From an uncultured Christensenellaceae bacterium (GTDB lineage: Bacteria; Bacillota; Clostridia; Christensenellales; CAG-314): a DNA stretch of 64,000 nt. Of this stretch, positions 7,323 through 32,437 are shown one piece after another; the first letter of the stretch is position 1, and each line of letters begins with the position of its first letter. The notes beneath the pieces are model-generated. The model made no database searches and was not told the origin of the DNA. It saw nothing but the letters and a program-made list of their open reading frames with translations. The translations under genes and the position numbers were made by a program. The stretch spans positions 67,346 to 131,345 of the forward strand of contig CAJUNH010000002.1 in assembly GCA_910587795.1 (NCBI GenBank), in the 5' to 3' direction.

Positions 7323-10300
7323 CTAATCTTCTACAAAGGTTACTTGACGGGACAAGTCTTTTCCAAAGTCTTCCAAACGATACCTAAACGCATACGTATT
7401 GCCGTCTTCGTCGTAGGCAATCATCATCAATGCGTTTTCCACTGCGTAAGCGTCGTTGATGATACCTGTAGAACTATCCTTATTGTGCGCCACTTGTACG
7501 CGTAACGAAGCAAACGTCAGTTTTTTGCCCGTAATTAATCCGTAGAAATTTGTATTGTTGAGGATTGTTTGAACCTGAGGATTATTTATATCGGTGTACT
7601 CGTAAATCAATCCGCGGTAATCGCCTATATCTCCGCCTACTTCTGCAAACTTAGTAAAGTCCAACTTAGACAATAAGCTAAACGGCAAGTCCATTGTAAA
7701 TGCCTTTTTGCTAACGCCTGCGGGCGTTGTGGTAACAAGAGTGCCCGAAAGCTTTCCTAGCTGTACTTTAAACGTAAACACGTATTTTTCCAAGATGTCC
7801 GTATCGTTAGAGGACATACCGTCGGGTTTGTACAGCGCAAAACGGAATTTGCCCGTGTTGGTATTCTTATCGTACTTAAAGTTAAGGCTTGCAAGCGCGC
7901 TTGCCAAATCCTTATTTTGATTGCGCGTGTTTTCGTAAAGCGTTTCGGGAGTGACCTCGTTGCCGTTAATGACGTAGCACAGATCCACCGACTGCGTGTT
8001 AAAGCTCATACCAAAGGATTGTTCAAAAGTTATTTGGTTAAGCAAACGCTTTACGTAGCTTTCGCCGACGTACGGAGTGTACGTAACTTCCGCGGCGCGG
8101 CTGTCCAACATTGTGCTGCCGCCCTTTGCGTAAACGCGTACAAGATACGTGCGTCCGACAGGGAAATCGCTTGCGGCAAAAGTAAGCGTTTGAGATGAGA
8201 TGTCGTAAACCTTTGTTGCTACGTCTGCCGGTTTGGTATTAGTAACCGCATACACTTCCACACGGTAATTGCTGCTGTCTCCCGTAATGGTCAGCGTGCT
8301 TGCCGCAAGGTCTATTGTAACTTGCGGAGTTGCCACGCGGGAAAGCTTGCACAATTCGATATCCAGTTTTGCCGACTCGGGGGCGTTAATCCAGTTAACG
8401 TTGTCGCCCACGGCAACAAGAGATATTGTGTAATTGTACAGCTGATCGTCGAGAACAAGCGTTGCGTCGAGCTCTTTAAGATTGGTTCCGCTTGTTACGT
8501 TGGGATACGACTTAATAAGTTCGCAGTCCAGTCCGTTTTTGCGGTAAACGTTAAGAATGTAGCCGGATGCGTTTGCAATATCGTCAAAGACCAAAACGCC
8601 GTTGTCGTCCACGCTGAAATAATAGTTGTTGCTTAGTTGATGTTTAAGCGTAGAGGGACGCTCTGCGTCCGGATTTTTAATTACGGAAGGCAACGTGAAG
8701 GAAACCGTATCGTAATTAAATCGGGAATATCCGCTAAACGGCTTGTAGTGTTCGCCGCCGGAACCTCTTACGTGAATATTTCCGGAATAGTAAATTTCGT
8801 ACAGCTTACCCGATGAAAGTTCCACCGAAACAAATTCCAGTTCCACCGTCCAACGGTAAGAGTTGTTAAACCCTAAGCTGCTGCCCGCCTGACGTTCCAA
8901 ATAATTTTCCGATCCGGAATAACGCGCTATTACCGCAGAAAGCTGTTCCATATAATCCGCTTTGCCGTAGTATTTGCCGTCCTTTCCTTCGTAGAACCAG
9001 TTTGCGCTGAGCATTTGGTTAATGGGCAGAATCCAACTTATCCATTCGTTGTATTTTTCCACGTCGTCGTCGACAAACGCGCTGTCTAACGGATATACCG
9101 TGTACGTACCGTTACTGCCCTTGTATGCAACGTACGGATTACCGCCTACAAAATATATATAATGGTCGCCCGTAATCCAGGTTACGTTATTTGTATGTTT
9201 GTAAACGTCGGCATGTTCGCCGAACACTCCGCCTAACTCGTCGTAGTCGTCGTAAACAAATTTGTCGGTGTAAGTAAAGTTACTGCCCGTGGCTGTAAGC
9301 GCAGCGCTAAGTCTGTCCAAACTTCCGTCCGTCTTTGCTTCGCCGGGGGCGATAAACTGTTCCTGAGCTTTTTGCGGAATTGCAACTTCGTTAGGATTTT
9401 GATTAAGAATAACGACTTCCTTGACGTAGTATTCCAACCAACCGTCATAGTCCTCGATATAGCTTGCCGCAACAACCTTAACAACCTTGCCGCCGTTCAT
9501 ATAAATACGGATATAGGCGTACGTTTCGGTTTCTTCCGCTTCGGGATACACTAAGTCCAAATCGCCGAAAATCAACTGTCCCAAAGCCTTAGTTGCAGCA
9601 GCCGTACCGTTAAACTCAAAGTATCCGCCCGTTGCACTGAACTCAAACTTATCTACGTATTCCGCCATCAGTTTAAGCAACGGAGCAGGTTGCGTGCAGT
9701 TGTAAAGTATTGCTCCGCCCGCTTCGATACCTAACAAATACTGATTGTAGTTATAATTGTTTTTGTAACTGTACAGATTGCAATATACGTCGTAGCCGTA
9801 ATTGCTGTTGGGTACTGCCAAGAACAATGCGCCCGTTGCAGAATCGTACTGATAGTAGCAGGTTTTGTTATCTATTACAACACTGCCGAAATTATCGTGA
9901 TTGTGCATTGTGTGAATAATTGAGGACGTTTGACCGTAGAAATTACTTGCCATTGTGTAATAACCTGTAAATACGGTTAAATCCCTTAATGCCTGCGCAA
10001 GCTGCTCTTTGGTGTATGCCACGCCGTCGCTCACGACGTTGTTACGGTTGGGGTCGTTGGGGTCCAGTATAGGATATAACGACGCGGCGCCGGGGTCTTC
10101 TTTATCCAAAAGTTCTTTAAATTCCGTTTTAAGATTTTTTAATACCGTCACGTCGCCGATACCGCTGACGGAAATACTATGCTTGTAGTAATAGTACGTA
10201 ACAGCAACGCCCGTACCGCCGATAGAGGTTGTGTCCGTAACTACGGAATCCGCCTCGATACCGATTAATACGCCTTGTTCGTTAAAGATAAGCGCAAAAG

Positions 10301-11785: not shown

Positions 11786-14692
11786 CTAAGCAACCGCTTC
11801 GTCCGCAGTAAGCACGGTTGTACCGTAATCGCTAAACGTTGCGCTGACAGACATTTCGTCTGCATACAAAGTTACCTTTGTTACTTTTCCGTCCTCTACC
11901 GTAACGGAAACTCCTTTAAAACCGCCGAACTCTATTTGTGTGGATTCCTTATACAAATCTGCAAAATTATAGTAGTATTGTGCAAATTCCAAAATCTGTT
12001 CGTTGGTCAGTTTCCAACTATAACTGCCGTTTAAAGTATTGTATTTTGCGCTAGACACGTCCAGTTTTGTAAAATCGAACGTAAGCACAAGCTGTTCAAA
12101 CGCCTGAGTCAAATTTTCCGTTTCCTGTCCTAATTTTTTAAACCAAGCGCCGTCTTTAAATATATAGTCGGTTTGCACGTATTGATATTGGTTTTCCAAA
12201 TGTTCCAATGCCGCAGCTCCGTCGCCGTCAAACTTAAAGATAGATTCGCTTACCGATTCCGTAATAGTAACGTTAGCAAAGTTTTCCGATTTAAGCGCGT
12301 TGTTAAGTTCCGTAGTTTGGTCTGCGGTTAAGTTTTCCAACTGTTCGTCCACTGGCAGCGTTACCGCAGCGGTATCGAAATCCTTATACGTCAGCGTGCA
12401 TTGCTTGTAAACCTCTTTGTCTTTTGCTGTTGTTCCGTGTAAAACAAAGTATATTTCGGTAACGTTATTGTCTGCGTCCAAAGTTACTACACAGGTTTGC
12501 AGAGTTACGTTTAAAAAGTCGCTGCCTTCCAAAGACATTATTTGATTGATAAGCGCGTAAGCTTCGGCAAGTTTATCCGCTTTGACAATGTATTTATCGC
12601 CGAGTTTGCCGAACAAGTCCGCCTTTAATGCGATTGAAGCAACGGATATATAATTACCGTTTTGCCAACTTATATAATCAACGTCCGTAGCTGTGCCGTA
12701 GATATAGTCCGTACCGACCATTTGATACGTTGCCAGCGAGCCTTGAAGCTGCTTTATGTAATACTCCGCCGACTCGTAAATCCATTCTTCTTCTACAGTT
12801 TCGCCGGTAACAGGATCTTTACCGCTTAAAATTGCCCACTCCTTATAGTTGTGATATCCCTTTTGAGAGGTACTGTCGAACACGCCGAAGTAAGTATTTA
12901 TAAAGTAAGCCGCACCGCTGTCGATGTTGTAACCGTAGCTTATTTTGTCATAAGTTTTTGCCAACGCCGACGTTAAATTCGCCGTTTCGTCCGCCGTTAA
13001 GTCGGTTGCCTGCGAAGGATCGGGAAAATCGGGTTTTTCCGCCGGAGCAACGTATTTTTCCGCTTCGGGGATTTCCACCGCGGTATTATTAAAGTCCTCC
13101 CAATTATAGGTTACGATAACTCTAAAATCGCCTTGATCGTCCGTATCCGTATATGTAATTTTTAGCTCGGTGATGTTTGTTCCGTCGGTTTTAATTATAA
13201 CGCTTTCGGGAGAAGCGGTTTGTAAATCCAAAAATTCTCCAGCGACGGTGTTAAGATAGCGATTGCTGGCTTTGTAGGTGTTTTCGCCTGCTTTTTCAAA
13301 CATACCGTAAGTTAAAGCGCTTGATACGTCCGCCATTGTAAACATATATGGAGCTATATCGTCCTTTATGGCTTGATCGAAATCCGTAATTTGATAGTAC
13401 CATTTGCTGTTTTCAGTGTTTTGGTACACTATACGTATGGTCTGTGCAGCCGCGTCTACATCCAGATAGTAATTTTCGTCTACGTCCGGTTCGCTTAGCG
13501 ACGGAATATGATACGCGTGACGTACAAAGTAACTTGAACCCTGAACGGACTCCTCTTGCAATATCCAAGCTCCGTCTTCGGGGACTTCGTACTTATATGT
13601 AAATTTAAGCGAAGCGTATTGCTTTTTAAACATTGCTTCCAGCGCTTTGCCTTCCGTCTCGTTAAGATTAGGTGAATTTACGTATGTTACGGTTGCCTCG
13701 CATGTATAATCGCGCGATTGATATTTAAAAGTAAGCTTATATTTACATTCGCCCTCGGCAGAAGGGTTTCCGCTTATAAGCTCCGCCGTAATTTGCGGAT
13801 TAGACACCGTACTGCCGTTTACAATGGGGATTGCTTTTGCCGCCCAGTCGATATCCTGACCGATATAAGCCGTAAACGGGTCGCAGCCGAACAAAACCTT
13901 TGATTCCTCTACATATTGAACTTTTACGGACTGTGTATATTCCGTACCTTCGTACTTAAAGGTAAGTACGTACTCCGCCACGCCCGATACGGATTCGCTG
14001 CCGACATCCAGTTTCGCAGTAATCTGCGGGTTAGATACGGGAACGCCGTTTACCGTAACCGTCACGTTAGCCGCCCAGTCGGGAGTTGTTCCCAACTGCA
14101 CCGTTAAAACGGGACAGGATATTACTACTGCGGGATTGCTTGCAGAGGAAGTGTAAGTTACGGCGATATTGCCAGAAGTATACGTTTGTCCGTCTATTTG
14201 TACGCTCAGTCTGTACGTACATTGTCCCGCAACGGCAGGGTCTCCGCCGACAAGTTTAGAGGTAAATTGCAAACCCGACGTTACCGTTCCGTCCACCGTT
14301 ACCGTTACAAAGTTAGACCAATCTATATTTTGACCGACGTTAACTTGTATCGTCGCCGCGTCAAACCGTACATCGTGGGTTGCAATGAAAAATTCCACCG
14401 AAGCGGTTGTAGTATAAGATTGGTTATTGTAGACGTAAGTTAATATATACGTCGCTTTGCCCGCTTTAGAAGGATCGCCGCTTTTAAGGTCGGCGGAAAT
14501 TTCGGGGTTATCCGCTTTGACGTCGTCCACCGTTACCGTTACGTAATCTTTCCAGTTTACGTCAGCGCCGACAGGCAATTTTATTTCGTCGCAAGTTATC
14601 TTTACTTTGTGTATTTCTTCCGTACACGCCGCAAAACACAATGCCGCGCACAGCAACATAACCAACAATACGATTATCAGTTTTTTCTTCAT
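11786..14692 (-). CDS. Large lipoprotein (968 aa): four Ig-like repeats followed by three modules of about 200 aa of unknown fold
   Basis: GGAGAGG RBS and lipobox FAAC. The three distal modules end TYNWEDFNNTAVEIP, TYKDFDTAAVTLP and TFSDYGTTVLT. Confidence 0.85.
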   Translation of the reverse strand: MKKKLIIVLLVMLLCAALCFAACTEEIHKVKITCDEIKLPVGADVNWKDYVTVTVDDVKADNPEISADLKSGDPSKAGKATYILTYVYNNQSYTTTASVEFFIATHDVRFDAATIQVNVGQNIDWSNFVTVTVDGTVTSGLQFTSKLVGGDPAVAGQCTYRLSVQIDGQTYTSGNIAVTYTSSASNPAVVISCPVLTVQLGTTPDWAANVTVTVNGVPVSNPQITAKLDVGSESVSGVAEYVLTFKYEGTEYTQSVKVQYVEESKVLFGCDPFTAYIGQDIDWAAKAIPIVNGSTVSNPQITAELISGNPSAEGECKYKLTFKYQSRDYTCEATVTYVNSPNLNETEGKALEAMFKKQYASLKFTYKYEVPEDGAWILQEESVQGSSYFVRHAYHIPSLSEPDVDENYYLDVDAAAQTIRIVYQNTENSKWYYQITDFDQAIKDDIAPYMFTMADVSSALTYGMFEKAGENTYKASNRYLNTVAGEFLDLQTASPESVIIKTDGTNITELKITYTDTDDQGDFRVIVTYNWEDFNNTAVEIPEAEKYVAPAEKPDFPDPSQATDLTADETANLTSALAKTYDKISYGYNIDSGAAYFINTYFGVFDSTSQKGYHNYKEWAILSGKDPVTGETVEEEWIYESAEYYIKQLQGSLATYQMVGTDYIYGTATDVDYISWQNGNYISVASIALKADLFGKLGDKYIVKADKLAEAYALINQIMSLEGSDFLNVTLQTCVVTLDADNNVTEIYFVLHGTTAKDKEVYKQCTLTYKDFDTAAVTLPVDEQLENLTADQTTELNNALKSENFANVTITESVSESIFKFDGDGAAALEHLENQYQYVQTDYIFKDGAWFKKLGQETENLTQAFEQLVLTFDFTKLDVSSAKYNTLNGSYSWKLTNEQILEFAQYYYNFADLYKESTQIEFGGFKGVSVTVEDGKVTKVTLYADEMSVSATFSDYGTTVLTADEAVA
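13672..14611 (-). repeat. Four tandem Ig-like repeat units (about 78-85 codons each) in the 968-aa lipoprotein
   Basis: Each unit has the pattern ..G..(I/V)(D/N)W...V(T/P)(V/I)(T/V)V(D/N)G..V..P(Q/E)I(T/S)A.L..G.....G...Y.L(T/S)..Y....Y. Confidence 0.7.
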
Positions 14693-14702
14693 AACCTCTC
14701 CT

Positions 14703-14963
14703 TTACCTCATCAGCAAATACAATATTACGGCGGCTATACCGAAAGCAACAACGAATATCAATAAAATAGGCAGATAAACTCTGTACGCCGCGCCTATCA
14801 TAGCGCGTTTTTCTTTGCGCGTTAGTTTTACGCGTTTTTTGCGTTCCTCGGCGCGCTGTTCGGCTTGTTCGGGAGTTAACCCTTCCAAACCCGCCATAGA
14901 GTATATCGTTTCGCCGTCGTCTTCGCGGTACACTGCTTTAATTTTTTTGTTTTTCTTTTTCAT
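14703..14963 (-). CDS. Small membrane protein (86 aa): basic N-terminus, single C-terminal TM helix
   Basis: The ORF overlaps the oppF 3' end by 26 nt. TM segment YLPILLIFVVAFGIAAVILYLLM. The RBS is weak (GGTAG), so coding status is less certain. Confidence 0.5.
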   Translation of the reverse strand: MKKKNKKIKAVYREDDGETIYSMAGLEGLTPEQAEQRAEERKKRVKLTRKEKRAMIGAAYRVYLPILLIFVVAFGIAAVILYLLMR

Positions 14964-15975
14964 TATCTACCGTATCAAACTTGTGGCAAGCCACGTAGTG
15001 ACCTGCGCTTACCTCGAAATACTGCGGAGGCTGTTTTTTGCATTGTTCGGTACAATATTTACAGCGTGTGTGAAATTTGCAGCCCTCGGGCGGATTTGCA
15101 GGACTGGGAAGTTCGCCCTCCAACGCTTCGGGATTGGACTTTTTATGCGGATTTGCAATGGGAACGGCGGAAAACAAGGCTTGCGTATACGGGTGAGACG
15201 CATGATTGCAAATATCGTCCGTTGTCCCGATTTCCACGATATTACCCAAATACATTACCGCTATTGTGTCCGAAATATATTTTACTACGGACAAGTCGTG
15301 CGAAATAAACATATAGGACATGTTTTCTTCGCGCTGTAACTTTTTAAGCAGATTTATCACCTGCGCCTGAATAGAAACGTCCAAAGCGGAAACAGGCTCG
15401 TCGCAGATAACCAACCTGGGCTTAACCGCAAGAGCGCGCGCAATACAAATACGCTGACGCTGACCGCCGCTGAACTCGTGCGGGTAACGGTCAAAATAAT
15501 GTTCCTGCAATCCGCAGCGTTTCATAACGCCTATTACGTATTCTCTCACTTCTCCTTTGGGTACGATATTGTGAGTTCTAACGCCTTCGCTGATTATTTC
15601 GCCCACAGTCATACGGGGAGGCAGCGACGAATACGGATCCTGAAAAACATATTGCAAATGCGTGCGCAGCGGCTGTAAGTCTTTGCGTTTGATAGTTGCC
15701 AGTTCGTGCTCGAAACCGTCCTGTTCGACGTAAACAGCCGAACCTTCGGTAATATCGTACAAGCGCAATATAGTACGCCCCAAAGTAGTTTTACCGCAAC
15801 CGGACTCGCCTACGATACCTATCGTTTTGCCGCGTTCCAAATTAAACGTAACGCCGTCAACTGCGCGCAAATATCCGGCGGGCTTGCCGAACATACTTTT
15901 ACCGACGGGAAAGTATTGCTTTAAGTTGGAAACTTTTAATATGTAATCCTTGTTTTGATTGTTTCGTTCGCTCAT
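14938..15975 (-). CDS. oppF: Oligopeptide/dipeptide ABC transporter ATP-binding protein (OppF-type)
   Basis: Walker A GESGCGKT, signature FSGGQRQR, Walker B LVICDEPVSALD, H-loop ISHDL, and a Cys-rich C-terminal oligopeptide-type domain (CKFHTRCKYCTEQC). Confidence 0.9.
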   Translation of the reverse strand: MSERNNQNKDYILKVSNLKQYFPVGKSMFGKPAGYLRAVDGVTFNLERGKTIGIVGESGCGKTTLGRTILRLYDITEGSAVYVEQDGFEHELATIKRKDLQPLRTHLQYVFQDPYSSLPPRMTVGEIISEGVRTHNIVPKGEVREYVIGVMKRCGLQEHYFDRYPHEFSGGQRQRICIARALAVKPRLVICDEPVSALDVSIQAQVINLLKKLQREENMSYMFISHDLSVVKYISDTIAVMYLGNIVEIGTTDDICNHASHPYTQALFSAVPIANPHKKSNPEALEGELPSPANPPEGCKFHTRCKYCTEQCKKQPPQYFEVSAGHYVACHKFDTVDNEKEKQKN

Positions 15976-15992: not shown

Positions 15993-17312
15993 TTATTTTT
16001 TATACAAATGACAAAATACGCTGTGAGTATCGGTCACTTTTATTTCCTGAGGATATTCCCCTTCGCATTTACCGCAGCGGCGGTTGCATCTATCCTTAAA
16101 CAAACACTCGTTAGGCATATTTATAGGGTTAGGCACGTTGCCGGGTATACTGTACAAATCCGCGCCGATATCCGATTCGAACGTGGGCTTTGCCTTTTGT
16201 ATACCCATTGTGTACGGATGCAACGGGTTATCGAAAATTTCGTAAACCGTACCCTTTTCCACAATTTTTCCCGCATACATAACCACAACGTAATCCGCCA
16301 TTTCGGCGACAACGCCCAAATCGTGGGTAATAAGCAGCACCGACGCGTTACATTGTTTCTGCACGTTTTTTATAAGCTGCAATATCTGGCTTTGAATGGT
16401 AACGTCCAACGCCGTAGTCGGTTCGTCGGCAATAATCAGTTTGGGGTTGCCCGTTAAGGCTATCGCTATCATTACTCTCTGGCGCATACCTCCCGACAGC
16501 TGATGAGGATAATAGTCTATTATCGTTTCCGGCATAGGAATACCCACAAGTTTAAGCATTTTAATTGCTTTTGCGCGGGCTTGCTCCTTAGTTGCCAAAG
16601 GATGCAGCAAGTACACCACTTCCTCTATTTGATAGCCGATTGTGAACACGGGGTTAAGACTGGTCATCGGCTCTTGGAATATCATAGAAATATCCTTACC
16701 GCGTACGCGCGCCATATCCTCCGTGGGCATTTTTGCAATGTCGTAGACCGTTTCCGCCGTCTCGTAAACAAACATACCGTCGTCGTTTACCTCGCGTATC
16801 GGCTCGGTTACGGGCTTGCCTTCTTTATTCAAAACGGGATTGCCGTGTTTGTCTAATTTAGGCTGTGTAATAATTTCGCCGTTTTCGTTCCGTTTGTACA
16901 CAGGTATACGTTTGCCGCGGTCGTCCGTTCGGTAATCGTTTGCCGCAAATCGGATTTCGCCGTCCACAACCTGACCTTGCGGAGCCTGCACGAGCTGCAT
17001 AATAGACAAACTCGTAACGCTTTTGCCGCAGCCCGATTCGCCTACTAAGCCCACTATGGAATTTTGCGGAATATCAAAACTTATGCCGTTGACGGACTTG
17101 ACTACGCCGTTATCCGTAAAGAAATAGGTGTGCAGATTTTCCACTTCCAACACGTTGTCGGGGTTTTTCATCTGCGCGGTAAAGTGTTCCGCCGATACGC
17201 GCTTGCGTTTGATTTTTTCCAAACGTTTCATTTCGCGCATATTGCTTTTTAATATGGCGCGGCTTTCCTTTATAGTTAAATTGTAAGGATTTTTTGCTTT
17301 TTCGTTTTTCAT
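15993..17312 (-). CDS. oppD: Oligopeptide ABC transporter ATP-binding protein (OppD-type) with an N-terminal extension and an internal insertion
   Basis: Walker [34 protein letters not shown]. About 118 aa separate Walker A from the MIFQEP Q-loop. Confidence 0.9.
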
Positions 17313-17318: not shown

Positions 17319-18707
17319 TTACCTTTTCATTTTGGGGTCCATTGCGTCGCGCAAACCGTCACCGACAAAATTGAAGCCCAAAACGGCAATTACAATTAAG
17401 ATACCTGCGGGAATCCACAGATTTGGATAGTTCTGCATGGTAATGGGATTTGTAGATGCGGATATCATAGTACCCCACGCCGCATAAGGGATAGGAACGC
17501 CCAAACCCAAATAGCTTAACGTTGACTCGTACAAAATTACGCTGCCAAGTCCTAACGTCATGGACACAATAAGCTGAGGCATAATGTTGGGAACAAGGTG
17601 CTTAAATATTCTGCGCCAAGTGGGAGTCCCCATAACCTCGCACGCAACGATATATTCCTGCTCCCGCAAATACAAAATCTGTCCGCGAACCATACGGGCG
17701 ATTCCGCTCCAACCGAATACGGTCAAAATTATCATAAGATAATAGATATTGAACTGAGGGTCTACTTCCCAAGATTCCAGTACGGCGGAAGCGATAAGCA
17801 AAATAGGCAATGTGGGTATACAGTTAAGCACATCCACGACGCGCATTATAACCTGATCTACCCAACCGCCGAAATAGCCTGCCAGTCCGCCCATCAGTAC
17901 GCCCAAAAGCGTTTCCAAAATAACGACGACGAATCCCAGCGTCAACGACACCCTGCCGCCGTACATCAAGCGGATAAATACGTCCATACCCTTTTCGTCG
18001 GTGCCCAGCCAGTGGTTTCCGTCGGGAGAAGCATATTGGTTAAAATCTACAAGTCTGTCGTTATACTGATAAACGCTGTGCTTTTCTCCTTTAGCGTCGA
18101 TGTACTCCACCCACTCGCCCGCTCTGCGCCAAGTGGGAGAATAATCGGGGTCGATTTCGCCCCATTGATAGCCGCCCCACTTCATAAAAACGGGACCTAA
18201 GAAAGCAAATAAAAACAGTACTATTAACATTACCAAGCCCACAAGCGACAGCCGCGAACGGAAAAATCTGCGCGCAACCATAAGCGCGGGAGATAATTGT
18301 TTGTAGTGTACTTGCTGCTCTACATTGTCGTCGGTAATTTTCTCGGTGACGGTAAATTCTTCTGCCGTTACAGTTTCCAACGTCGGTTCGGCTATTGCCG
18401 CAGACTTTGCTTCTTCCGTTTTTTGTTTTTTAATTCCGTGAGTATCTTTTATATTAGCCTCGTCATTTTTAACAGCAGACATTGTTTTGGTGGATTTTTT
18501 ATCCGTTGTTCCTCCGGATTTTTTTGCTACCGTTTTAACCGCCGTAGCGCCGGTTTTTTTAGCCGACGCTGTTGCGGTTGTGCCCGTCGTTTTTTTAGAC
18601 GTTGTTTTGGATGTCTTTGCCGTTTGCTGTTTTTCCGCAGCTTTTACATCCGCAGACGTTGTTGCGGTAGTTTCGGTAATATTTTCTATATTTTCTTTTT
18701 TACTCAT
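17319..18707 (-). CDS. oppC: Oligopeptide ABC transporter permease (OppC-type) with a Lys/Thr/Ala-rich N-terminal extension of about 150 aa
   Basis: Conserved core GTDEKGMDVF, EYIVACEVMGTPTWRRIFKHLVPN and six TM segments. 462 aa against about 300 for a typical OppC. Confidence 0.85.
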   Translation of the reverse strand: MSKKENIENITETTATTSADVKAAEKQQTAKTSKTTSKKTTGTTATASAKKTGATAVKTVAKKSGGTTDKKSTKTMSAVKNDEANIKDTHGIKKQKTEEAKSAAIAEPTLETVTAEEFTVTEKITDDNVEQQVHYKQLSPALMVARRFFRSRLSLVGLVMLIVLFLFAFLGPVFMKWGGYQWGEIDPDYSPTWRRAGEWVEYIDAKGEKHSVYQYNDRLVDFNQYASPDGNHWLGTDEKGMDVFIRLMYGGRVSLTLGFVVVILETLLGVLMGGLAGYFGGWVDQVIMRVVDVLNCIPTLPILLIASAVLESWEVDPQFNIYYLMIILTVFGWSGIARMVRGQILYLREQEYIVACEVMGTPTWRRIFKHLVPNIMPQLIVSMTLGLGSVILYESTLSYLGLGVPIPYAAWGTMISASTNPITMQNYPNLWIPAGILIVIAVLGFNFVGDGLRDAMDPKMKR

Positions 18708-18717: not shown

Positions 18718-20115
18718 TCACTTTGTCAGTTTTACGCGCGGGTCTACCACGGCGTACATAATATCGCTAAGCAACGTTCCTATTACCGTAAGAATAGCAA
18801 GGAACATATTGTAACCCATAATAAACGGTATATCTCCGTTACGCAGCGCTTTGTAAGCAAGCCGCCCTATACCGTCGATACTGAAAACTTCCTCTGTAAT
18901 CATCGCTCCGCCGAACAAGCTGGGCAAGATACCTGCCATTAACGTCATTAGCGGAATCATAGTATTGCGGAACGCGTGCACGTATACTACGCGCTTTTCG
19001 GACAAGCCTTTTGCGCGGGCTGTACGGATATAGTCGGAGTTTAAAACTTCCAGCATATTCGTACGCGTATAACGCATCATACCGCCTATGGACAGCACTA
19101 CAAGCACCGTCATAGGCAGTACCAAGTGCCACAGCATATCGGGCAGGTTTTGCCATACGTTTACCGCGCTGCTGCCGCCGCTTACAAGTCCCGAAGCGGG
19201 GAACCAGCCCAAAGTTGTAGCAAACAGTTTTATAAGCAATGCCGCAAAGAAGAAAGACGGCAGAGATATACCCATAAGCGTGACAACCGTAACTATATAG
19301 TCCGCTGCGGAATACTGGTGCGTTGCGCTTACAATACCCAAAGGAATTGCGATTGCAAATTCCAAAATCATTGCAACAAAGGATAGTGCAAAGGATATCC
19401 ACATATTTTCCGCAATAACCTGCGTTACGGGCAGCTGATGGTCGAACGATTCGCCCAAATCGAATTTCAAGGCGTTACCCAACCACTTAAAATAACCGCC
19501 CAGCACTGCGCCCAGTTTATCGCCGAAGTTGGAATTACGGTACGATACGGCGCAGAATTCGCCGTTTGTAATAATATCGAAATCCAAAGTAAGGTTGTAA
19601 ACGCCGTTTTCGTCGCGCTCGTTTATAACAAAGTATCCGCTTTTTAAAACCGTTTTCTTTTCTTCGTTTTTGCCTGTTTCCTCATCTTTTACCGTTTCGC
19701 GCAAACTGATTTCGTACTCGCCGCTTTCTTTAAGAATCATCATATACGTTATTCCGTTTATAGTAGCGTCGAACTCGTTAATTTGTTTTACGTACCATTC
19801 CTCGACAGACAGCAATTCGTTTTGAGCGTCCTCGTAATCGCGGTCGGAGGAGTTACCCACAAAAGTAACTTCCCCTCGCACGCCCGGCACGTCGCTTACT
19901 TTAACGTCCACATATGATTCCGGCATAAACAAACCGTATTTTTGACGGAATTCATTTAACTTTGCGCGCGTCATTGTACCCTGCTGCAACTGAGAATGAA
20001 ATTTTGTTTCCAAGTAGTCGGTAGGCATCAAACGCACCAAAGTATAAATAATTATCGATACGCCCAGCAAGATGACTATTGCAAGACCTATTCTTTTGAG
20101 AATATATTTAACCAT
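18718..20115 (-). CDS. oppB: Oligopeptide ABC transporter permease (OppB-type) with an insertion of about 130-150 aa in the first external loop
   Basis: Typical start MVKYILKRIGLAIVILLGVSIIIY and EAA-type loop YIRTARAKGLSEKRVVYVHAFRN. 465 aa against about 310 for a typical OppB. Confidence 0.85.
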   Translation of the reverse strand: MVKYILKRIGLAIVILLGVSIIIYTLVRLMPTDYLETKFHSQLQQGTMTRAKLNEFRQKYGLFMPESYVDVKVSDVPGVRGEVTFVGNSSDRDYEDAQNELLSVEEWYVKQINEFDATINGITYMMILKESGEYEISLRETVKDEETGKNEEKKTVLKSGYFVINERDENGVYNLTLDFDIITNGEFCAVSYRNSNFGDKLGAVLGGYFKWLGNALKFDLGESFDHQLPVTQVIAENMWISFALSFVAMILEFAIAIPLGIVSATHQYSAADYIVTVVTLMGISLPSFFFAALLIKLFATTLGWFPASGLVSGGSSAVNVWQNLPDMLWHLVLPMTVLVVLSIGGMMRYTRTNMLEVLNSDYIRTARAKGLSEKRVVYVHAFRNTMIPLMTLMAGILPSLFGGAMITEEVFSIDGIGRLAYKALRNGDIPFIMGYNMFLAILTVIGTLLSDIMYAVVDPRVKLTK

Positions 20116-20134: not shown

Positions 20135-22738
20135 TTATTTGGATTCCTTAAGACTAACTTCCCATAATCTTGCAAGAGGTCCGTTATATGCCGTCAAATC
20201 AGCTCCGTGCTGCAACGTATCGGCGTCTATAATGCTTGTGTTAAATGCAAACAAGTCGCTGCGTTGATATGTAGGCAATTCTACCGCCAAATCCATAACC
20301 AAATCCAAAGCTTCCGCGTAACGTTCCTTACGTTCGTTTTGGTCGGTTGTTTCGCGCGCTTCGTCGATTAAAACTGACAGCTGCTGTACAATGCCGTATT
20401 CGTAATCGTACTTGCCGCCTGCGTTACGCAGAATCGCTCTGTAACCCCAGTTGGAGGTAGACCCGGCAGTGGAGTCCTTATGATAAACCTGATACATATC
20501 GGGGTCGATTGCCGCGCCCCAAGCAGCCGCCCATACGGTCAAGTCGCCGCTGCTGAGTTTACTTAACGCACGGATATCGGTTGCTACGTTAACTTTAAAA
20601 CCTACGCCGTTAAGGATTGCCGCCGCTTTTGTAAGAGCCATATATGCGGGGTGGTCGGTGGATTCGCCGGCAATGGTAAACGTAAACTTTAATACCGTGT
20701 TGCCCTTTTGCAAAATGCCCTGAGCGTTTAACGAATAATCTTTTACAAGTTCCTTAATAATTGTCGCTTCGGGGTCAAATTCGTAGTAGTGTTCGTCCTT
20801 CTTTTGACTGCCTTCGGCATGCATATCGTTTACTTCGTCGGGATACGCCCAAGAAACGCGCGTCATAGGACGGTAAATAGCCTGAGAATATCCGTGATAG
20901 TAGTCTACGCACAGCTGAGTGTTAATTGCGTGCATAATAGCTCTGCGCACGTTTACGTCGGGGATTTTTTCCGCATTGATACCTACGTATCCGTAGCCGT
21001 TGGTTTCCACCTTGTCGTAGTCGATTGCCGTACCGTTTTGCTTATGTGCCTCGATATCGTTAATGATATCCTGCGTGCAGGACGGCTCTACAAAGTGAAC
21101 GTCGCCGCTGTATAACGTATCCAGCATAGAGTTAGTGGAAACCACCTGATAGTTTACGTACTTGATTTTTGCGGGGAACATAAAGTGTTCGTTACGTTCA
21201 AAATATACAACGCCGTGACTGCGGAACGTACCTGCCTGTACGTTACTGCTGTCGCCCGACTGCGTAGTAGCTTTGTAGGGACCTGCGCCTACGGGCACGC
21301 CTATTTTAGAAGAATCCTTTATGACTTTATCTTGGAAATCGGGCGAACCGAAATCTATACCGAAGTTCTTTTCGTAATCGAATTTAGCGATTTGGTCGCT
21401 GTTGGAGTAATAATACATTGGCGCAACGGTAAAAGCAAAGTTCCAAATTGCTTTGGGGTCGACCTTTTCGATAGTTATTTCCAAAACCTCGTGGCACGTC
21501 GTTACCACCGAGCCGTCGGCGTTGTATGCCGTAACGGGAGCGTATGTATTGCCGTTTACTTCCACCGCCTCGGTACGGTTAATAAACTTAATACCGCTGA
21601 TGTTCTGTATACGTTCGTCTTCGTTCATATTGTCGAAGTATTCTTTTTTAAGTTTGTTGGCAAGGTACTGTCTAAGTTCGTTACCCGTGTTCCACATATT
21701 GATAACTTCGTCGATACTGTTGGGGACATAACTGTCGTACATACGCTGTACCGCTTCTTCTCTCGTCCAGTTTTTGCTTGCTTCGCCGAAGGAGTACTCG
21801 AATTTGTGATTTTTTTCGTCCCAGGTAATTTTACCTTCGTTATAAAGAAAAGCTTCCGTGTCGGTTGTCAAGCAAACTTCCGTAACGCCGTCTGCCGCCA
21901 TAAACTTAATATCTTTTGCCGTGTCTACGCTGTTGGTGTAGTCCGTTTCCAACTCCTTACGGAAATACGCCTTAGCGTAGCCGTAGTCCTCTACAACGTG
22001 CTGCGACAGCGGGCTTGTATGTTCCTGTTGCCACGCTTTAAGCAATTCTGTCATTTCGGCATCGGTTAAAGACCTGTTGCTTGTATCGTCGCGGATATCG
22101 TTGATTGCGTCGATTGTTAATTGCTCAATACGTGACAAAGCTTCGGAATCGAATCTTTCGTTAAACTTATCCTGTTCGCGCTGAGAACGCGTCTGCGTTT
22201 GATATTCCTTTAAACCTACAATCTCGGTAGAGTAAATCGTTGCGCTTCCGTAATAAGCGGGATCGAGATACTCGTACAAATTGAACAGCACGTCTTTCAT
22301 CGTAAGGGGAGAACCGTTACTGAATTTAACGTTATTTTTAAGCACAAATCTGTATCGAGTAAACTGATCTCCGTTTTCGGTATACGTATACTCGTCGTAA
22401 TCGTATACAACGCACGGTTCCGCCGCAAGAGCGGCTATACGCGTTTGCGGAGTTGTATACCCGATAATATTACCGTTTTTATCTGCCGCCAACATAGAAA
22501 TCTGCGTCATACCTACAATATTGCTGTCTGCCGCAGCCGACGAATAAAACGGATTAAATACGCCGTCCATTTCGGCAGTGGACAATACCAGACGGGTCGT
22601 TTCGTTGTTTATACCGGTGGGTCCCGTCGGGGTATTCGGATCTACGGGATCGTCGCACGCGACAAATCCAAACGTCATGGTAAAGACCATCGCCGCAAGT
22701 ACCAAACATGTTAAAAATGTTTTTAATTTTGTTTTCAT
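20135..22738 (-). CDS. oppA: Family-5 (peptide/nickel type) ABC substrate-binding lipoprotein, oversized at 867 aa
   Basis: GAGGAG RBS and lipobox FVAC. SBP family-5-like core (e.g. GVPVGAGPYK, ETNGYGYVGIN). It sits directly upstream of oppBCDF. Confidence 0.8.
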   Translation of the reverse strand: MKTKLKTFLTCLVLAAMVFTMTFGFVACDDPVDPNTPTGPTGINNETTRLVLSTAEMDGVFNPFYSSAAADSNIVGMTQISMLAADKNGNIIGYTTPQTRIAALAAEPCVVYDYDEYTYTENGDQFTRYRFVLKNNVKFSNGSPLTMKDVLFNLYEYLDPAYYGSATIYSTEIVGLKEYQTQTRSQREQDKFNERFDSEALSRIEQLTIDAINDIRDDTSNRSLTDAEMTELLKAWQQEHTSPLSQHVVEDYGYAKAYFRKELETDYTNSVDTAKDIKFMAADGVTEVCLTTDTEAFLYNEGKITWDEKNHKFEYSFGEASKNWTREEAVQRMYDSYVPNSIDEVINMWNTGNELRQYLANKLKKEYFDNMNEDERIQNISGIKFINRTEAVEVNGNTYAPVTAYNADGSVVTTCHEVLEITIEKVDPKAIWNFAFTVAPMYYYSNSDQIAKFDYEKNFGIDFGSPDFQDKVIKDSSKIGVPVGAGPYKATTQSGDSSNVQAGTFRSHGVVYFERNEHFMFPAKIKYVNYQVVSTNSMLDTLYSGDVHFVEPSCTQDIINDIEAHKQNGTAIDYDKVETNGYGYVGINAEKIPDVNVRRAIMHAINTQLCVDYYHGYSQAIYRPMTRVSWAYPDEVNDMHAEGSQKKDEHYYEFDPEATIIKELVKDYSLNAQGILQKGNTVLKFTFTIAGESTDHPAYMALTKAAAILNGVGFKVNVATDIRALSKLSSGDLTVWAAAWGAAIDPDMYQVYHKDSTAGSTSNWGYRAILRNAGGKYDYEYGIVQQLSVLIDEARETTDQNERKERYAEALDLVMDLAVELPTYQRSDLFAFNTSIIDADTLQHGADLTAYNGPLARLWEVSLKESK

Positions 22739-22743: not shown

Positions 22744-23874
22744 TTACTCCTCTGTTGACTTAGTTGTTAAACTGCAAGTAAAATCGGTTATTTCCGCATT
22801 TTCCTGCTGATTGTAAATTATAACGATGTTGTCTCCAACAAGATTATTTAATTGGACGTCTTTATTTAAAGTTTCCGCAACGCCTTCTATTTGTACGTTA
22901 TGTATCTTTGCCGCGCCGCAGTTTTGAGCCATTACCGCTATTTGAATACGGACGGACGCGGTTTCCTTTATTCTGTAAGTTACGTCGGCAAACTTTATAT
23001 TTTGCAGCACCGCTTTGTCGCGCAAAGTACCGAACATACTGATTGTACCCGACGAATAGTTTTCTACCACAAAATTCTTTACGGTATAGTTGTTGCCTTC
23101 CCATATTCCGCTGTACGAATTAATGTACAAAGTGTCCGCCTCGCAATCCACATCGTTTAACAAATAAATGTTTTTATTGCCGCGGTATGCCGTGTACAAA
23201 TCGTCGTAATTACGCACCAAACTCCATTCGCCTTCGATATAAGTAACGTAAATCGGCACGTCCAAAGTCTGCTCGTTTGCGGGATGGACAAAATTATCGT
23301 CCCACTCTACGGTGCAAGTTATATCGCTGTAATACCCCAGCGCCGTGTATCCCGCCCGTTTTGCCGTTCTTTCGCGGTTGTTCTTGCTGATTTTTGCGCC
23401 TAAACTGATTTGCTCCTGCGAGGGAGTGTAGCTGTTTACGGCAACGGGTTTTCCTCCGTCCAAGTAATATACGGTAAACGTATATTTTATTTGCTTTTCC
23501 CAACCGGCGTATAAAATCAGTTCGTCCTGTTCCAGTCTGTCCTTTGCAAAATCCCACTTTTGGGTGCACGCTTCGTCTTTATACCAACCCGTAAAGTCGT
23601 AACCGCTGCGCCTTATCGCGTCCGTCGTACCTTCCTTAGAATAGTACTCAACCGGATCCAGTATCAGCACGCCCTTTTCCTCGTATGCGTAGCCGTAGGA
23701 TGAGGAGTCGTCCACGCTGGACGTAGACATCGTCAGCGACCCGCCGTTAAACTTAAATTTTACAATATACTTACCGTCCAGTACGTCGTCGCCTGTTTTA
23801 CAAGCGGCAAAACATATGACGCTTGCCAACAGCACTACGGCAAGCAATAACAGTAGTTTGCTTTTATGCTTCAT
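22744..23874 (-). CDS. Lipoprotein (376 aa) with two Listeria-Bacteroides repeats and a C-terminal beta-rich domain
   Basis: GAGG RBS and lipobox FAAC. Repeats end SGYDFTGWYKD...LILYAGW and AGYTALGYYSD...VTYIEGEW. Confidence 0.8.
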   Translation of the reverse strand: MKHKSKLLLLLAVVLLASVICFAACKTGDDVLDGKYIVKFKFNGGSLTMSTSSVDDSSSYGYAYEEKGVLILDPVEYYSKEGTTDAIRRSGYDFTGWYKDEACTQKWDFAKDRLEQDELILYAGWEKQIKYTFTVYYLDGGKPVAVNSYTPSQEQISLGAKISKNNRERTAKRAGYTALGYYSDITCTVEWDDNFVHPANEQTLDVPIYVTYIEGEWSLVRNYDDLYTAYRGNKNIYLLNDVDCEADTLYINSYSGIWEGNNYTVKNFVVENYSSGTISMFGTLRDKAVLQNIKFADVTYRIKETASVRIQIAVMAQNCGAAKIHNVQIEGVAETLNKDVQLNNLVGDNIVIIYNQQENAEITDFTCSLTTKSTEE

Positions 23875-23984: not shown

Positions 23985-24587
23985 TTATGCGGTAAAATCG
24001 TACGTAAACACAACCTGATAGCCGCTGCGTTCAAAACTTATTTCCACCGACTGTATTGCGTCTTCTGTGTACTTTGCAACAACCCTGCCGTTTTGTCCTT
24101 CGGTGTCGCTGCCCATTAACTTGGACAAGTCTTTTACGTTTGCGGAAAATACTCCGTCCTTATCTTCAACTTTATCCAAGTTGGATTTATTAAAGTTAAG
24201 AGCAACCGCCGTTATTTGAGTCAAATCCAAGTTGGGTTTTGCTCCGTCCTGCGTTTCCACCTGCGTTACGCCGTCAACCGACGTAATTTTCATAGAACCG
24301 CTGTACGTGGTTATTCTTTCATCGGGAACTTCGTACGAGCCGTTATCGGTTATAATTTCGTTTAAAACCTGATAGCTATACTGTACCGATACGGAGTCGT
24401 CCGCTTGTTTTACCGCGGTGTACGTTCCTTTTAGTTCTACATTGCCGTCAGTAACGTTAACCGTAAGTTTTACGTTTTCGTGAGGATCTTTACAAAGGTC
24501 GTCCAAGCGGCCGAACATTTTGTTACAGCCGCACAGCGACAGGCAAACAATCAACGCCAAAACAATAAGTATTATTTTCTTTTTCAT
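23985..24587 (-). CDS. Small lipoprotein (200 aa), function unknown; paralog of the 177-aa lipoprotein at 1880..2413
   Basis: AGGAGG RBS and lipobox LCGC. Its ATG overlaps the TGA of the 2617-aa gene (ATGA at 24584..24587). Confidence 0.8.
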   Translation of the reverse strand: MKKKIILIVLALIVCLSLCGCNKMFGRLDDLCKDPHENVKLTVNVTDGNVELKGTYTAVKQADDSVSVQYSYQVLNEIITDNGSYEVPDERITTYSGSMKITSVDGVTQVETQDGAKPNLDLTQITAVALNFNKSNLDKVEDKDGVFSANVKDLSKLMGSDTEGQNGRVVAKYTEDAIQSVEISFERSGYQVVFTYDFTA

Positions 24588-27500
24588 AGTTTGCCTCCTA
24601 ACAGATTTTTGAGTGCTACCGCTACTATTGCCAACAGCGACAAAATTCCCGCCACCTGCAAAGTAACGTTGGTTGCCGTTTTTGTCACCTCCGCATTAAC
24701 GGTGTTTATTGTTTTTACCAAAGTATTGTAAGACGTAACCGCCGCTTGCAGCTTATCGCTGTTTGTTACGTATGCCTTTTCTTCGGCAGTCAAAGCGTTA
24801 AATACGTTTAGCGCCTGCGATAGCCTGTCAAAACAGCTCTGCGCCGACGATACTTCGCCTATTGCGTCGATTGCGTCTATGGCAGCCTGAGCCGCCTTTT
24901 TGCGTTCGGCTTCTAACTCTTCGTTTCTTTCCTTAATTGCTTTTTCCAAGTCCGCGTTTGCTTTTACAAGTTTGTCGTAATTGGTTATTAAATCTTTTTC
25001 CTCTGCAGACAGTACGTTGTACGCGCTGTTTGCTTTTTCCACAAGGTTGATACTGCGGTCTGTACTGTCGATACCGACAAGCTTATTTATAGCGTTGATT
25101 GCCACGTCCACGTTATACGCGCTAAGCGCGGTTTGATAACGGTCGACAACCGATTTGTCTACCGCTGCAAGCTCGTCCGTATGACGCTGCAGCGCGTTGT
25201 ATGCCGTTATTGCATCGCCCATACTCTTTGCGGCAAATCTGTCTACGACGTCGGGCAAATTGTTTACCGCGTTAATAAACGCAATTGCGTATCCGCCCAT
25301 AGGGGTAAACTGCGACTTTGTTATCGTGTTGAAATATGCCGTGTAAAGCGCAGAGTCGTAACCTTCGCTGTTAACGGGCAGTACGGCTTGTAAATTAGAA
25401 GCCTTTTTACTTGTTACAAAATCCACAAACGTTGCGTAATACAACGGATACGGAACACCGAACGAAGGTTTATAGTCGGGATTTGCCAACAGTTGCAGCA
25501 GTTGAGTGTAGTAATAGTAATCGTACTTGTACAGTTTGTCGAACCCGGGGAATCTATCCTTTAAGTCGCTGCCGGGCAGGATATCCAACTCGCCGCTCAT
25601 CGTGCCTTCCAAAACGGGCGCATAATACGAACGGAACTCCACCGTAGCAAGCTTATCGCAGGAGTAGAACGACATATTACCTATGTTCGTCAGTGTTTGA
25701 GGCAACACGATCTTTGTGATGTTTTTGTTTCCGTATGCCGCCAAAAACTCGATGCGCACAACTCCTTCGGGAACTGCGTATTCCGCATCCGTCTTTGCCG
25801 CGGGATAGGACGATAACATATAGCCTTTATTCGTGGACGTGTACAAAACTCCTTTATCCAACATAACGTTGCTAAACGTAACGTCAAACACCTTTTGTCC
25901 GTTTACCGTCGCATAGAAAGTTTCAAATTTTTCTGCGTAAGTAAACGCGCCGTAATCTACAAACCTTAAATTGTCTGTAACTTCAAACTCTGTAATAAGC
26001 GAATCGACAAACACCATACTGCCGATTTCTTCCAGTTTGGGAGCGTTAAATTGCTGCAAAGCTCCGCTGCCGTAAAACGCGTTTTCCAACAAAAATCTAA
26101 GTTCGGGTGCGTTTACCGTTTTTAGGTGCGGGTTTTTAACGGGAACAAACTGCAATCCCTGAGATGTTTGCACCAACTCCGCCTCACAAAACGCTTGTAC
26201 GTCGATAGATTCGACTTTCGGCAACGTCAACGTTTCGGGCACCTGCGTCCCCAAGAAAGACATTTTGCCTACCTTTGTGATGTTATCAAAATCAAACTCG
26301 GCAAGATTCAGCGACGAGCATCCGTAAAATACGCCGTCGTTAATTACGCTTAGCTTGCTGCCGAACGTAATGTTTTGCAATTTTTCGCAGAATTCAAACG
26401 CGCCTTCGCCTATTGTTTCAACCTCGGGCAAACTTACCGTTTCAAGATCCATACATCCGTAAAACGCGTATTCGCCTATTTCTATTGCCTTAGGTAAAAT
26501 TATAATTACAATAGCGGGTCCTTCGTAAACAAACTGCTGTCCTCCGGAAACCAACTCGAATTGCGCAAACGCGTCGTGTTCCACTTTTTCCGCGTTGTCC
26601 GCAGTAACGTTTACCAATGACGCGCAGCCGCTGAAACATCCTTCGGGAATAACGGCAATATTGCCCAAGTCTACGCTTGCAAGCTTACTGCACATTGCAA
26701 ACGAGTATGCGCTTAGTTCCGTTGCTTTCGTAAGATCGATACGTACCAAAGAACTGCTGTTAAAGAACGCGTACTGTCCTATAACAACGCCGCCATCTGC
26801 AGGCATTTCCACCGTTGCAACAGCCGTGTTGGCAAATGCGTAATCGCCTATCTTGGCGTTTTTACCTAAATACAAATTTATAAGTTTACTTGTATACGTA
26901 GCGTTCAGTACGGTGGATTTTCCTACCGAAAACGCCCTGTATCCTACCGTTGCGCCGTCGCCTACGGTTACCGCTGTAAGTGCCGTATTGTAGAAAGCGA
27001 ATTCGCCTATGGACGGACACTTGCTTAAATCGATATTTTTAAGATTTACCGCTTCGGTAAACGCGCGGTCGTCTATTGCTACCGCATTGTCCCCCAACTT
27101 AACCGCCGTAAGGTTTGCGCAGTACGCGAATGCGGAATTTCCTATTTTTTCCAGTTGACTGACGGAAGCGTCCAATACGTTAAGGTTACGGTTTCCGGAA
27201 AACGCGCCGTCCGCAATTACTTTGACGTTTTCGGGCAATACGTATATACCGCCGTCAAAAGTTTTGTTAGTAAGCGCCAAAATCAATTCCGTGCCGTCTT
27301 TGCTGAACAAAATTCCGTCTTTAACGCTGTAATGGTTGGAGTTTGCCGCGCTAAAAGCAACGTTTGTTCCGCCCAGCGCGTTAAACATCAATGCGCCCAC
27401 TTCGTTAATTACCGTGTTTGCGTTTAATATCAACGTTGTAAGGGACGCGCAATTGCCGAATACGTTATCGCCAAAGGACGTTATACCGTCGGGCAGCACT

Positions 27501-32437: not shown

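Follow-up and report, generated by a model that had tools for sequence, protein, structure and literature searches.

A conserved locus pairing a giant cell-envelope proteinase with an Opp-type importer in uncultured gut Firmicutes, with a probable role in surface protein digestion and peptide import

We analysed a 64,000-nucleotide (nt) stretch of DNA from an uncultured Christensenellaceae bacterium (GenBank assembly GCA_910587795.1, contig CAJUNH010000002.1, positions 67,346 to 131,345; the whole stretch is referred to below as the window), in which eleven open reading frames (ORFs) follow one another on the minus strand between positions 7323 and 32437. In gene order, these encode a giant S8 protease of 2617 amino acids (aa), a 200-aa lipoprotein, a 376-aa lipoprotein, the five components of an Opp-type importer (OppA, OppB, OppC, OppD, and OppF), an 86-aa membrane protein, and two large lipoproteins of 968 and 1484 aa. 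All eleven ORF coordinates matched exactly those of the original prediction, an earlier reading of the same DNA, which had described a one-strand series separated by overlaps or gaps of 5–19 nt and a single gap of 110 nt; the junctions calculated from the coordinates are −4 (overlap), 110, 5, 19, 10, 6, 17, −26 (overlap), 10, and 8 nt. The domains named in that prediction were all recovered by Pfam profile search, and the lipid or tail anchoring that it ascribed to the extracellular products was readable as lipoboxes in the 200-, 376-, 867- (OppA), 968-, and 1484-aa products and as a hydrophobic C-terminal tail in the protease. All coordinates of cluster features given below refer to the minus strand.

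The protease gene (24584..32437) encodes a cell-envelope-proteinase-like enzyme with a PA insert, Fn3-like and Big_2 domains, a BspA-type leucine-rich repeat (LRR) region, a helical C-terminal region, and a membrane anchor. Pfam matches comprised Peptidase_S8 (1.4e-43), PA (3.5e-17, inserted within S8), fn3_5 (aa 724–838, after S8/PA), Big_2, and LRR_5 (3.4e-120, in eight stretches). The S8 catalytic domain covers aa 213–688 (30374..31801), with the PA domain lying inside it at aa 484–559 (nt 30761–30988), and the catalytic motifs VAVLDTG, HGTHVAG, and SGTSMACP are all readable. The structural matches in the PDB included C5a peptidase (7edd, 8.6e-69), SpyCEP, and a cell envelope proteinase (6vjb), the alignments to 7edd, 5xya, and 6vjb spanning residues 206–887. 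With an S8 Asp-His-Ser triad, a PA domain inserted in the catalytic domain, and a Fn3-like domain after it, the N-terminal ~900 residues belong by domain order and profile similarity to the cell-envelope-proteinase group. The anchoring is of a different kind from the LPxTG/sortase or S-layer type of that group: a search of the protease for an LPxTG motif found none, and the protein instead carries hydrophobic N- and C-terminal segments, the latter forming a tail anchor according to its hydropathy (24605..24658). A hydrophobic segment with basic residues after it recurs in the last 45 residues of 16 out of 18 full-length orthologues, which measure 2459–2698 aa. The protease is not a member of the subfamily described by NCBIfam NF040553 (SGO_0316/SGO_0317 LPXTG serine peptidases), against which it scored 273 bits (5.1e-81) with a cut-off of 1400. 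The BspA-type LRR region extends over ~800 aa (25688..28162, ~aa 1426–2250), and its PDB matches were the LRR proteins 4fs7, 4gt6, and TpLRR.

The importer has the complete architecture of an Opp/Dpp-type (PepT family) transporter: a family-5 binding protein, two BPD_transp_1 permeases, and two oligo_HPY ATPases. The OppA-like solute-binding lipoprotein (867 aa, 20135..22738) matches SBP_bac_5 in two stretches (2.1e-30), separated by ~240 aa that match no Pfam profile. In the OppB permease (465 aa, 18718..20115; BPD_transp_1 and BPD_transp_1_N), ~170 aa are inserted between the N-terminal membrane segment (aa 1–37) and the permease core (from ~aa 205). It is followed by the OppC permease (462 aa, 17319..18707; OppC_N and BPD_transp_1), the OppD ATPase (439 aa, 15993..17312; ABC_tran in two stretches and oligo_HPY), and the OppF ATPase (345 aa, 14938..15975; ABC_tran and oligo_HPY). 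The importer had been described in the original prediction as oversized. Three distinct causes lie behind this: the enlargement of OppA is a trait of its family (the best 120 of 2767 homologues are 822–928 aa long); the insertion in OppB is confined to one clade (orthologues range from 335 to 557 aa, with 335 aa in the low-GC members), and the extra length of the 462-aa OppC was not seen in relatives, L086 included (341–383 aa). Further peculiarities of these subunits are a T/K/A-rich low-complexity stretch of ~80 aa in OppC (residues ~13–90), a conserved N-terminal extension of ~55 aa and an ~80-aa insertion in the nucleotide-binding domain of OppD, and an N-terminal OppD motif, NPxxLTIKESRxIxKSN, that recurs in relatives. 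Both ATPases (14938–17312) also carry Cys-rich C-terminal motifs (OppD ...FCH; OppF CKFHTRCKYCTEQC...ACH), which recall iron-sulfur-binding C-terminal domains reported from certain Opp ATPases.

Peptides are the presumed substrate of the importer. The best-scoring NCBIfam models were Opp4A, Opp4B, and Opp4C (71.9, 253.6, and 319.1 bits, with cut-offs of 650, 450, and 350), and nickel (NikB/C, Opp2) and dipeptide models scored close behind. A transporter for some other family-5 substrate, such as glycopeptides, opines, metal chelates, or oligosaccharides, with the protease processing or maintaining the surface proteins of the locus, would account for the missing Opp equivalog and the nearly equal scores of the nickel models, as well as for an OppA that is remote from all solved binding proteins and has its ~240-aa segment outside any Pfam family. 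Set against this, the best PDB profile match of OppA (E = 6.5e-10), distant as it is, is itself an OppA; oligo_HPY, found in both ATPases, is typical of the Opp/Dpp group; and the protease is the only conserved enzyme of the cluster, in which Pfam searches revealed no glycosidase or metal-related gene. We therefore regard a non-peptide substrate as quite unlikely.

To place the cluster in a comparative context, we scanned one genome per GTDB species for OppA relatives, which gave at least 581 stretches, and examined the 80 best-matching loci with 10-kb flanks, searching for all window proteins by tblastn. Within this subset, a protease orthologue was found on the same strand and within 10 kb of OppA in 63 of 80 loci, or in 63 of the 66 with enough flank; the remainder comprised three informative loci without a protease (L009, L022, and L085), two informative on one side only, and 12 that were too short. 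In 18 loci, the protease is located upstream of opp, which is also its place in the window; in the other 45, it directly follows the 86-aa gene. The five opp genes occur in the same order in every locus long enough to show them. The loci vary in GC content from 28 to 59%, with OppA identity to the window sequence down to 41%. The divergence of the protease was correlated with that of OppA (Spearman rho 0.66, p = 6e-9), as expected if both are inherited together. The occurrence of the protease on either side of opp indicates that the linkage survived a rearrangement, and linkage maintained across many species and through a rearrangement is a classic genomic signature of functional coupling. The original prediction had named conservation in related genomes as a point on which it could fail; the protease–Opp pairing passed it in two gene orders. 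The complete eleven-gene order was present in at least three related species (L086; L087 and L001, both from the same sample; and L006).

A reciprocal scan of metagenome contigs with the catalytic domain of the protease was largely swamped by generic subtilases sharing the pattern HGTHVAGI, and about 9 of its 80 loci contained true relatives. Among these, Opp adjoins the protease at 59% and 46% identity and not at 52% (L088), and six more distant S8 or S8-LRR proteases (36–43% identity) have no Opp alongside. The linkage is therefore a trait of this orthologous group rather than of S8 proteases generally. Every sample with a named origin came from an animal or human gut (ruminants, rabbits, birds, mice, and humans), and the linked genomes all appear to be metagenome-derived assemblies and not cultured isolates. 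The NCBI taxon labels of the relatives (Clostridia, Christensenellaceae, Bacilli, Mollicutes, Treponema, Bacteroides) are binning labels, and we did not rely on them.

Two small genes turned out to be conserved partners of the protease and the transporter. The gene for the 376-aa lipoprotein (22744..23874; lipobox and Pfam Flg_new match) lies directly 5' of oppA, and that for the 86-aa tail-anchored membrane protein (14703..14963) overlaps the 3' end of oppF by 26 nt. Both had initially been treated as minor parts of the locus, a view that was not borne out: each was found in 73 loci at a fixed position, the 376-aa gene immediately 5' of oppA and the 86-aa gene immediately 3' of oppF, often overlapping it, in every one. 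The AlphaFold model of the 376-aa protein (predicted local distance difference test score, pLDDT, 89.3) comprises two beta-grasp-like InlB-B-repeat (Flg_new) domains and a C-terminal beta-solenoid-like domain, and its only consistent fold matches in the PDB were non-enzymatic binding modules, namely InlB B-repeats and the like. Apart from Flg_new, it matched no family in Pfam or NCBIfam. For the 86-aa protein, neither database gave any family match; its N-terminal part is charged and bears a conserved DDGxTxYxM motif, and its C-terminal half contains a membrane segment (71 of 71 sequences). Most plausibly, the 376-aa lipoprotein acts as a surface docking or capture partner, and the 86-aa protein as a membrane or cytoplasmic accessory subunit of the transporter. 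These comparisons define a conserved core of the locus: the protease, the importer OppABCDF, and the 376- and 86-aa proteins.

The three remaining lipoproteins behave differently. The original prediction had counted them as members of the unit; they are found in the nearest relatives only and are swapped for unrelated surface proteins elsewhere, and by this distribution they are fast-evolving, interchangeable accessories, not core components. The 200-aa lipoprotein (23985..24587; lipobox LSLCGC), the start of which overlaps the protease stop by 4 nt, matched no Pfam or NCBIfam family above cut-off (a Sigma_reg_N hit of 18.2 bits against 26.3 was dismissed as weak). Its homologues are limited to L006, L086, and L087 (34%, 37%, and 70% identity); L016 and L017 have non-homologous small lipoproteins in the same slot, and in L014, L015, and L037 the slot is empty.

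The 968-aa lipoprotein (11786..14692), a lineage-specific accessory, consists of four tandem Ig-like repeats (aa 25–340) and three helix-and-beta-sheet modules (341–548, 560–782, and 785–968), the first and second of which are homologues (E = 1e-12 to 1e-16). It is a near-orphan: a word search gave two homologues, and an exhaustive HMMER search of 1.84 billion proteins gave 22 representatives. It matched no Pfam or NCBIfam family; a hit to the GH127 middle domain (16.5 bits against 24.2) was dismissed as weak. Structure prediction, which had been proposed for this protein from the outset, returned a confident model (pLDDT 86.3) with binding-type folds only: the Foldseek matches were driven by Ig-like arrays (S-layer Sap, BbgIII, and a SusE-like protein) and included no enzyme. 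A likeness of the modules to LolA/LppX-type folds is not claimed, as matches to the four Ig-like domains outweighed all others when the whole chain was searched with Foldseek.

The 1484-aa lipoprotein (7323..11777), likewise a lineage-specific accessory, combines four Flg_new repeats (6.2e-54) with ~1170 aa outside any family. Apart from same-species contigs (L003–L005), the only loci with its C-terminal part were those of the nearest relatives, namely L001, L006, and L086. A Shr-like HID match (21.7 bits against 22.3) was not reproduced in the 1706-aa homologue from L001 and was set aside. In direct BLASTP comparison, similarity between the 968- and 1484-aa proteins was confined to the signal peptide; in a nine-protein profile search, residues 820–954 of the latter were weakly similar to module B of the former (iE = 4e-4), a result that is suggestive only.

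Elsewhere, Flg_new or LRR_5-rich lipoproteins of 741–1669 aa follow the 86-aa gene, and in several species this slot is empty. A low-GC subgroup (~29–31% GC) has there a ~1060-aa AhpC/TSA-Redoxin (thioredoxin-like) protein (L037:17207–20440, L040:17702–20869), for which a role as an extracellular disulfide reductase aiding substrate unfolding is speculation. As for the three loci without a nearby protease, L022 has a 1488-aa Flg_new protein after the 86-aa gene, L085 a 2137-aa Flg_new protein upstream, and L009 a 1051-aa Big_3 lipoprotein and an LRR protein, both on the opposite strand.

Such fast turnover of accessory lipoproteins between species is also what selection by a host or by phages would be expected to produce. 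The locus could then serve host interaction, the S8/LRR protein being mainly an adhesin or immune-evasion protease, the variable lipoproteins adhesins, and Opp either a scavenger of the resulting peptides or a neighbour linked for regulation. C5a peptidase and SpyCEP are the closest solved relatives of the protease, LRR_5 and Flg_new are typical of adhesins and internalins, and all named-origin samples are animal or human guts, which fits such a role. The pattern of conservation within the protease speaks for another kind of selection. The catalytic motifs are kept in nearly all orthologues (His 63/63, Ser 63/63, Asp 61/63), and the S8 domain is the best-conserved extracellular part of the cluster, with a median identity of 58% across species, whereas the LRR region is the least conserved (median 34% in 57 loci). 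This points to selection on catalysis and not on a particular host ligand. Furthermore, it is not obvious why, in 63 of 66 species and despite a rearrangement, an adhesin should have kept its place beside an ABC importer and on its strand. On this balance, we consider a primarily host-interaction role unlikely.

Signals for transcription were then examined around and within the cluster. Upstream, an asnS-like gene (32837–34147) ends in a terminator of its own (32820..32795, by scan), and between it and the protease a motif scan located a promoter-like site (32564..32592; TTTACA-17 nt-TG-n-TAAAAT) ~125 nt upstream of the protease start codon. Its −35 element CTTTACAT and −10 element TAAAAT are invariant in an alignment of the window with L087, L086, and L006, and the DNA around the site has diverged to ~60% identity with these three other species. 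At the opposite end, an intrinsic terminator lies 3' of the last gene (7276..7310, approximate; AAAAAACCUGUGC-AUCCC-GCACGGGUUUUUUU), with a U-run after a hairpin of −19.9 kcal/mol (z = −3.95, with 0 of 200 shuffles folding equally well). The strong terminator after the last gene and the lack of a hairpin in the 110-nt gap, both put forward in the original prediction, were upheld, folding of the gap revealing no significant hairpin (z = −1.17). Its claim of a single good promoter needs narrowing: the site stands out by its intergenic position and conserved elements and is not the sole match, because further 10/12 promoter-like matches lie within coding sequence. Overall, the consensus scanner gave yields near chance for promoters and terminators (31 against 29.9 expected and 34 against 26.2 expected).

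The operon-type signals amount to junctions of ≤19 nt or overlaps, one unstructured 110-nt gap, a conserved upstream promoter, and a strong terminal hairpin. They are compatible with one transcript and not proof of it, because scanner matches inside the genes occur at chance frequency; most likely, in the window species, the eleven genes are transcribed together from the promoter at 32564–32592 to the terminator at ~7276–7310. The Rfam scan of the window returned one tRNA only, with no leader or riboswitch 5' of the cluster. A search for CodY boxes gave no evidence of control as in lactic acid bacteria (AATTTTCWGAAAATT at ≤3 mismatches occurred 9 times against 6.5 expected, with none in the promoter region). 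The 110-nt gap (23875–23984), which precedes the 376-aa gene, contains three exact copies of GTAACG and one TTAACG, as well as a near-direct repeat (AGAAGTAACGAT / AGAGGTAACGAT), the second copy of which overlaps the ribosome-binding site.

The chance-level matches inside the genes could be read as traces of several transcription units, in a neighbourhood that owes its existence to shared ancestry in one lineage or to accident and not to functional coupling. In the 45 species where the protease lies downstream, the 376-aa gene is the first of the block, so that it needs a promoter of its own there. Such a history is hard to reconcile with a linkage that persists at OppA identities down to 41%, over 28–59% GC, and in two orders, with the conservation of the protease promoter, with the shrinking of the 110-nt gap to 51, 46, and 9 nt in relatives, and with start and stop codons that overlap at two junctions. 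Mere neighbourhood thus appears very unlikely to explain the locus.

The co-location of a protease and an importer raises one further alternative, peptide signalling, in which the protease would mature a secreted pheromone that Opp re-imports, as in the Phr/RNPP systems known from Bacillus and Enterococcus; in Firmicutes, peptides of this sort enter the cell through Opp. Pfam searches of the cluster found no precursor peptide, and neither in nor beside it is there a small precursor gene or an RNPP-type or other regulator. The 86-aa product, the smallest of the eleven, is a conserved membrane protein and not a secreted precursor, and maturing a pheromone would hardly call for a tail-anchored enzyme of ~2600 aa that bears an LRR arm. 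We consider signalling extremely unlikely as the function of the locus. With regard to regulation more broadly, Pfam and NCBIfam searches found no DNA-binding or sensor domain in any of the eleven products. A hybrid histidine kinase (35402–37624) is encoded beyond asnS and a SIMPL gene; homologues of asnS and of the SIMPL gene were absent from all 85 loci (tblastn), and the kinase itself was not searched for.

These findings suggest that the parts, held together across species and through a rearrangement, form a dedicated surface proteolysis-and-import system, which is the most economical reading. We put at roughly 60% the probability that this is a conserved cell-envelope proteinase and Opp locus for surface protein digestion and peptide import in a broad group of uncultured gut Firmicutes (monoderms). 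In such a system, the giant S8/PA/Fn3 protease, held on the membrane by its C-terminal tail, would cleave extracellular proteins at the cell surface, with its BspA-type LRR arm probably capturing the protein substrates. The enlarged lipoprotein OppA would catch the released peptides and OppBCDF would import them. The 376-aa lipoprotein and the 86-aa protein would join this machine, the former as a docking or capture partner at the surface and the latter as a membrane or cytoplasmic subunit of the transporter, and the 200-, 968-, and 1484-aa lipoproteins would be non-catalytic surface binders, probably tuning what is captured. The original proposal that protease and importer constitute one functional unit is thus supported in part: it agrees with the linked pair, found together in two orders, and needs correction for the 200-, 968-, and 1484-aa lipoproteins, which lie outside the core.

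Several observations weigh against this proteolysis-and-import reading. The linkage rate describes the 80 best-matching loci out of at least 581 stretches, and even among these, the 376-aa gene, OppABCDF, and the 86-aa gene occur without a protease within 10 kb in L009, L022, and L085. The eleven-gene transcription unit is a prediction, with promoter- and terminator-like matches inside the cluster genes at chance frequency. No Opp, Dpp, or Nik equivalog in NCBIfam reaches its cut-off for the transporter, the closest solved binding proteins for OppA are remote and include nickel binders, and sequence alone cannot assign the importer to peptides. The cluster encodes no intracellular peptidase or regulator. 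Finally, host interaction rather than nutrition is also a known role of C5a-peptidase/SpyCEP-type enzymes and of BspA-type LRR proteins. The four alternatives discussed above are nonetheless less well supported than digestion of proteins at the surface followed by peptide import.

A more ambitious version of this reading is a physically integrated foraging machine. Its protease, 376-aa lipoprotein, OppA, and extracellular OppB insertion would be docked together and hand peptides straight on from the site of cleavage to that of uptake, with the 86-aa protein acting on the cytoplasmic side as a regulator of the transporter; the whole would represent a new monoderm class of protein-utilisation system with a conserved core and swappable capture lipoproteins. 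We regard it as possible and rather doubtful. If true, such machines would occur widely among uncultured gut Firmicutes that probably depend on external amino acids, and knowing of them would be informative for bringing these organisms into culture.

Around the cluster, the terminator is followed by a 755-nt AT-rich spacer (6568–7322) with a promoter-like site for the next gene (6809..6780, TTGACA-18-TAAAAT, 11/12). Next come a distinct gene for a 1384-aa Flg_new protein and, overlapping it, a 177-aa ORF outside any family (1880–6567, minus strand), a pair found only in the same-species contigs L003–L005, which looks like another variable surface-protein unit beside the cluster. On the other side, a second ABC-type uptake locus (39311–47377, minus strand) includes a GH2 glycosidase (39311–41053), an unusually long MalK-like ATPase (529 aa), a BPD_transp_1 permease that is fused or enlarged (625 aa), a 527-aa protein without a Pfam family, and a TIM barrel protein resembling xylose isomerase; it may be that this genome generally favours enlarged transporter components. 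The remaining context is of a housekeeping kind, all on the minus strand: a tRNA (1647–1720), the hybrid histidine kinase already mentioned, which has PAS and receiver domains, and UvrC, AddA/AddB-like helicase-nuclease, and FtsH genes within 48207–61387. No sign of a mobile element was seen around the cluster.

How gut bacteria degrade proteins has been charted far less thoroughly than how they degrade glycans. If surface digestion and peptide import are indeed the function of this locus, its presence in a genome would mark a proteolytic, peptide-dependent way of life in these lineages and give a hint for their culture, with proteins or peptides as the source of nitrogen and amino acids. It would likewise add two new candidate accessory subunits to Opp transporters and offer a natural system in which to study how variable surface lipoproteins steer substrate capture.

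The nearest functional parallel is the pairing of PrtP/lactocepin with Opp in lactic acid bacteria, where the proteinase and Opp genes are at separate loci, in contrast to the one conserved same-strand cluster described here. Other differences are the C-terminal membrane segment in place of an LPxTG or S-layer-type anchor, ~1300 extra protease residues including the BspA-type LRR arm, and an OppA larger by ~300 aa; here, no PrtM/PrsA-type maturase gene is present, and a non-enzymatic 376-aa lipoprotein and an 86-aa membrane protein are found instead. Shared by both are an S8 domain with an inserted PA domain followed by a Fn3-like domain, and a five-component Opp-type importer with a lipoprotein binding protein. 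The division of labour, with the protease outside and peptide import inside, would also be the same: in lactobacilli, proteins outside the cell are cleaved by cell envelope proteinases, and what results is taken up through Opp (PMC6199461).

Our best catalytic, PA, and Fn3 matches came from the streptococcal C5a peptidase (ScpA/ScpB), SpyCEP, and SGO_0316/0317 (challisin-type) enzymes. These, unlike the protease described here, are LPxTG-anchored, are not linked to Opp, have no LRR arm, and act on specific host factors. Another pairing of surface proteolysis with lipoprotein partners or an importer exists in Treponema denticola dentilisin (PrtP with the lipoproteins PrcA and PrcB), a surface protease with lipoprotein partners, and in Porphyromonas gingivalis, where gingipain and RagAB pair surface proteolysis with a peptide importer. 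Both differ from the present locus in that the organisms are diderm, the partners are unrelated, and the genes for protease and importer are not known to share an operon.

The original prediction had likened the locus to a polysaccharide-utilisation locus (PUL), and in function the likeness stands: as in Bacteroidota and Gram-positive PULs, a single locus holds a surface degrading enzyme, variable non-catalytic binding lipoproteins, and a dedicated importer. It does not extend to regulation, since the cluster has no regulator, nor to a SusC/SusD pair; the substrate would be protein rather than glycan, and the likeness is functional and not one of homology. The searchable literature, the coverage of which is incomplete so that absence is not proof, describes no proteinase-Opp operon or monoderm protein/peptide utilisation locus. 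Compared with all of these systems, the components are of known kinds. What is new is their conserved fusion into one locus, restricted as far as seen to assemblies of uncultured gut Firmicutes, together with a tail-anchored, LRR-bearing proteinase and its two conserved partners.

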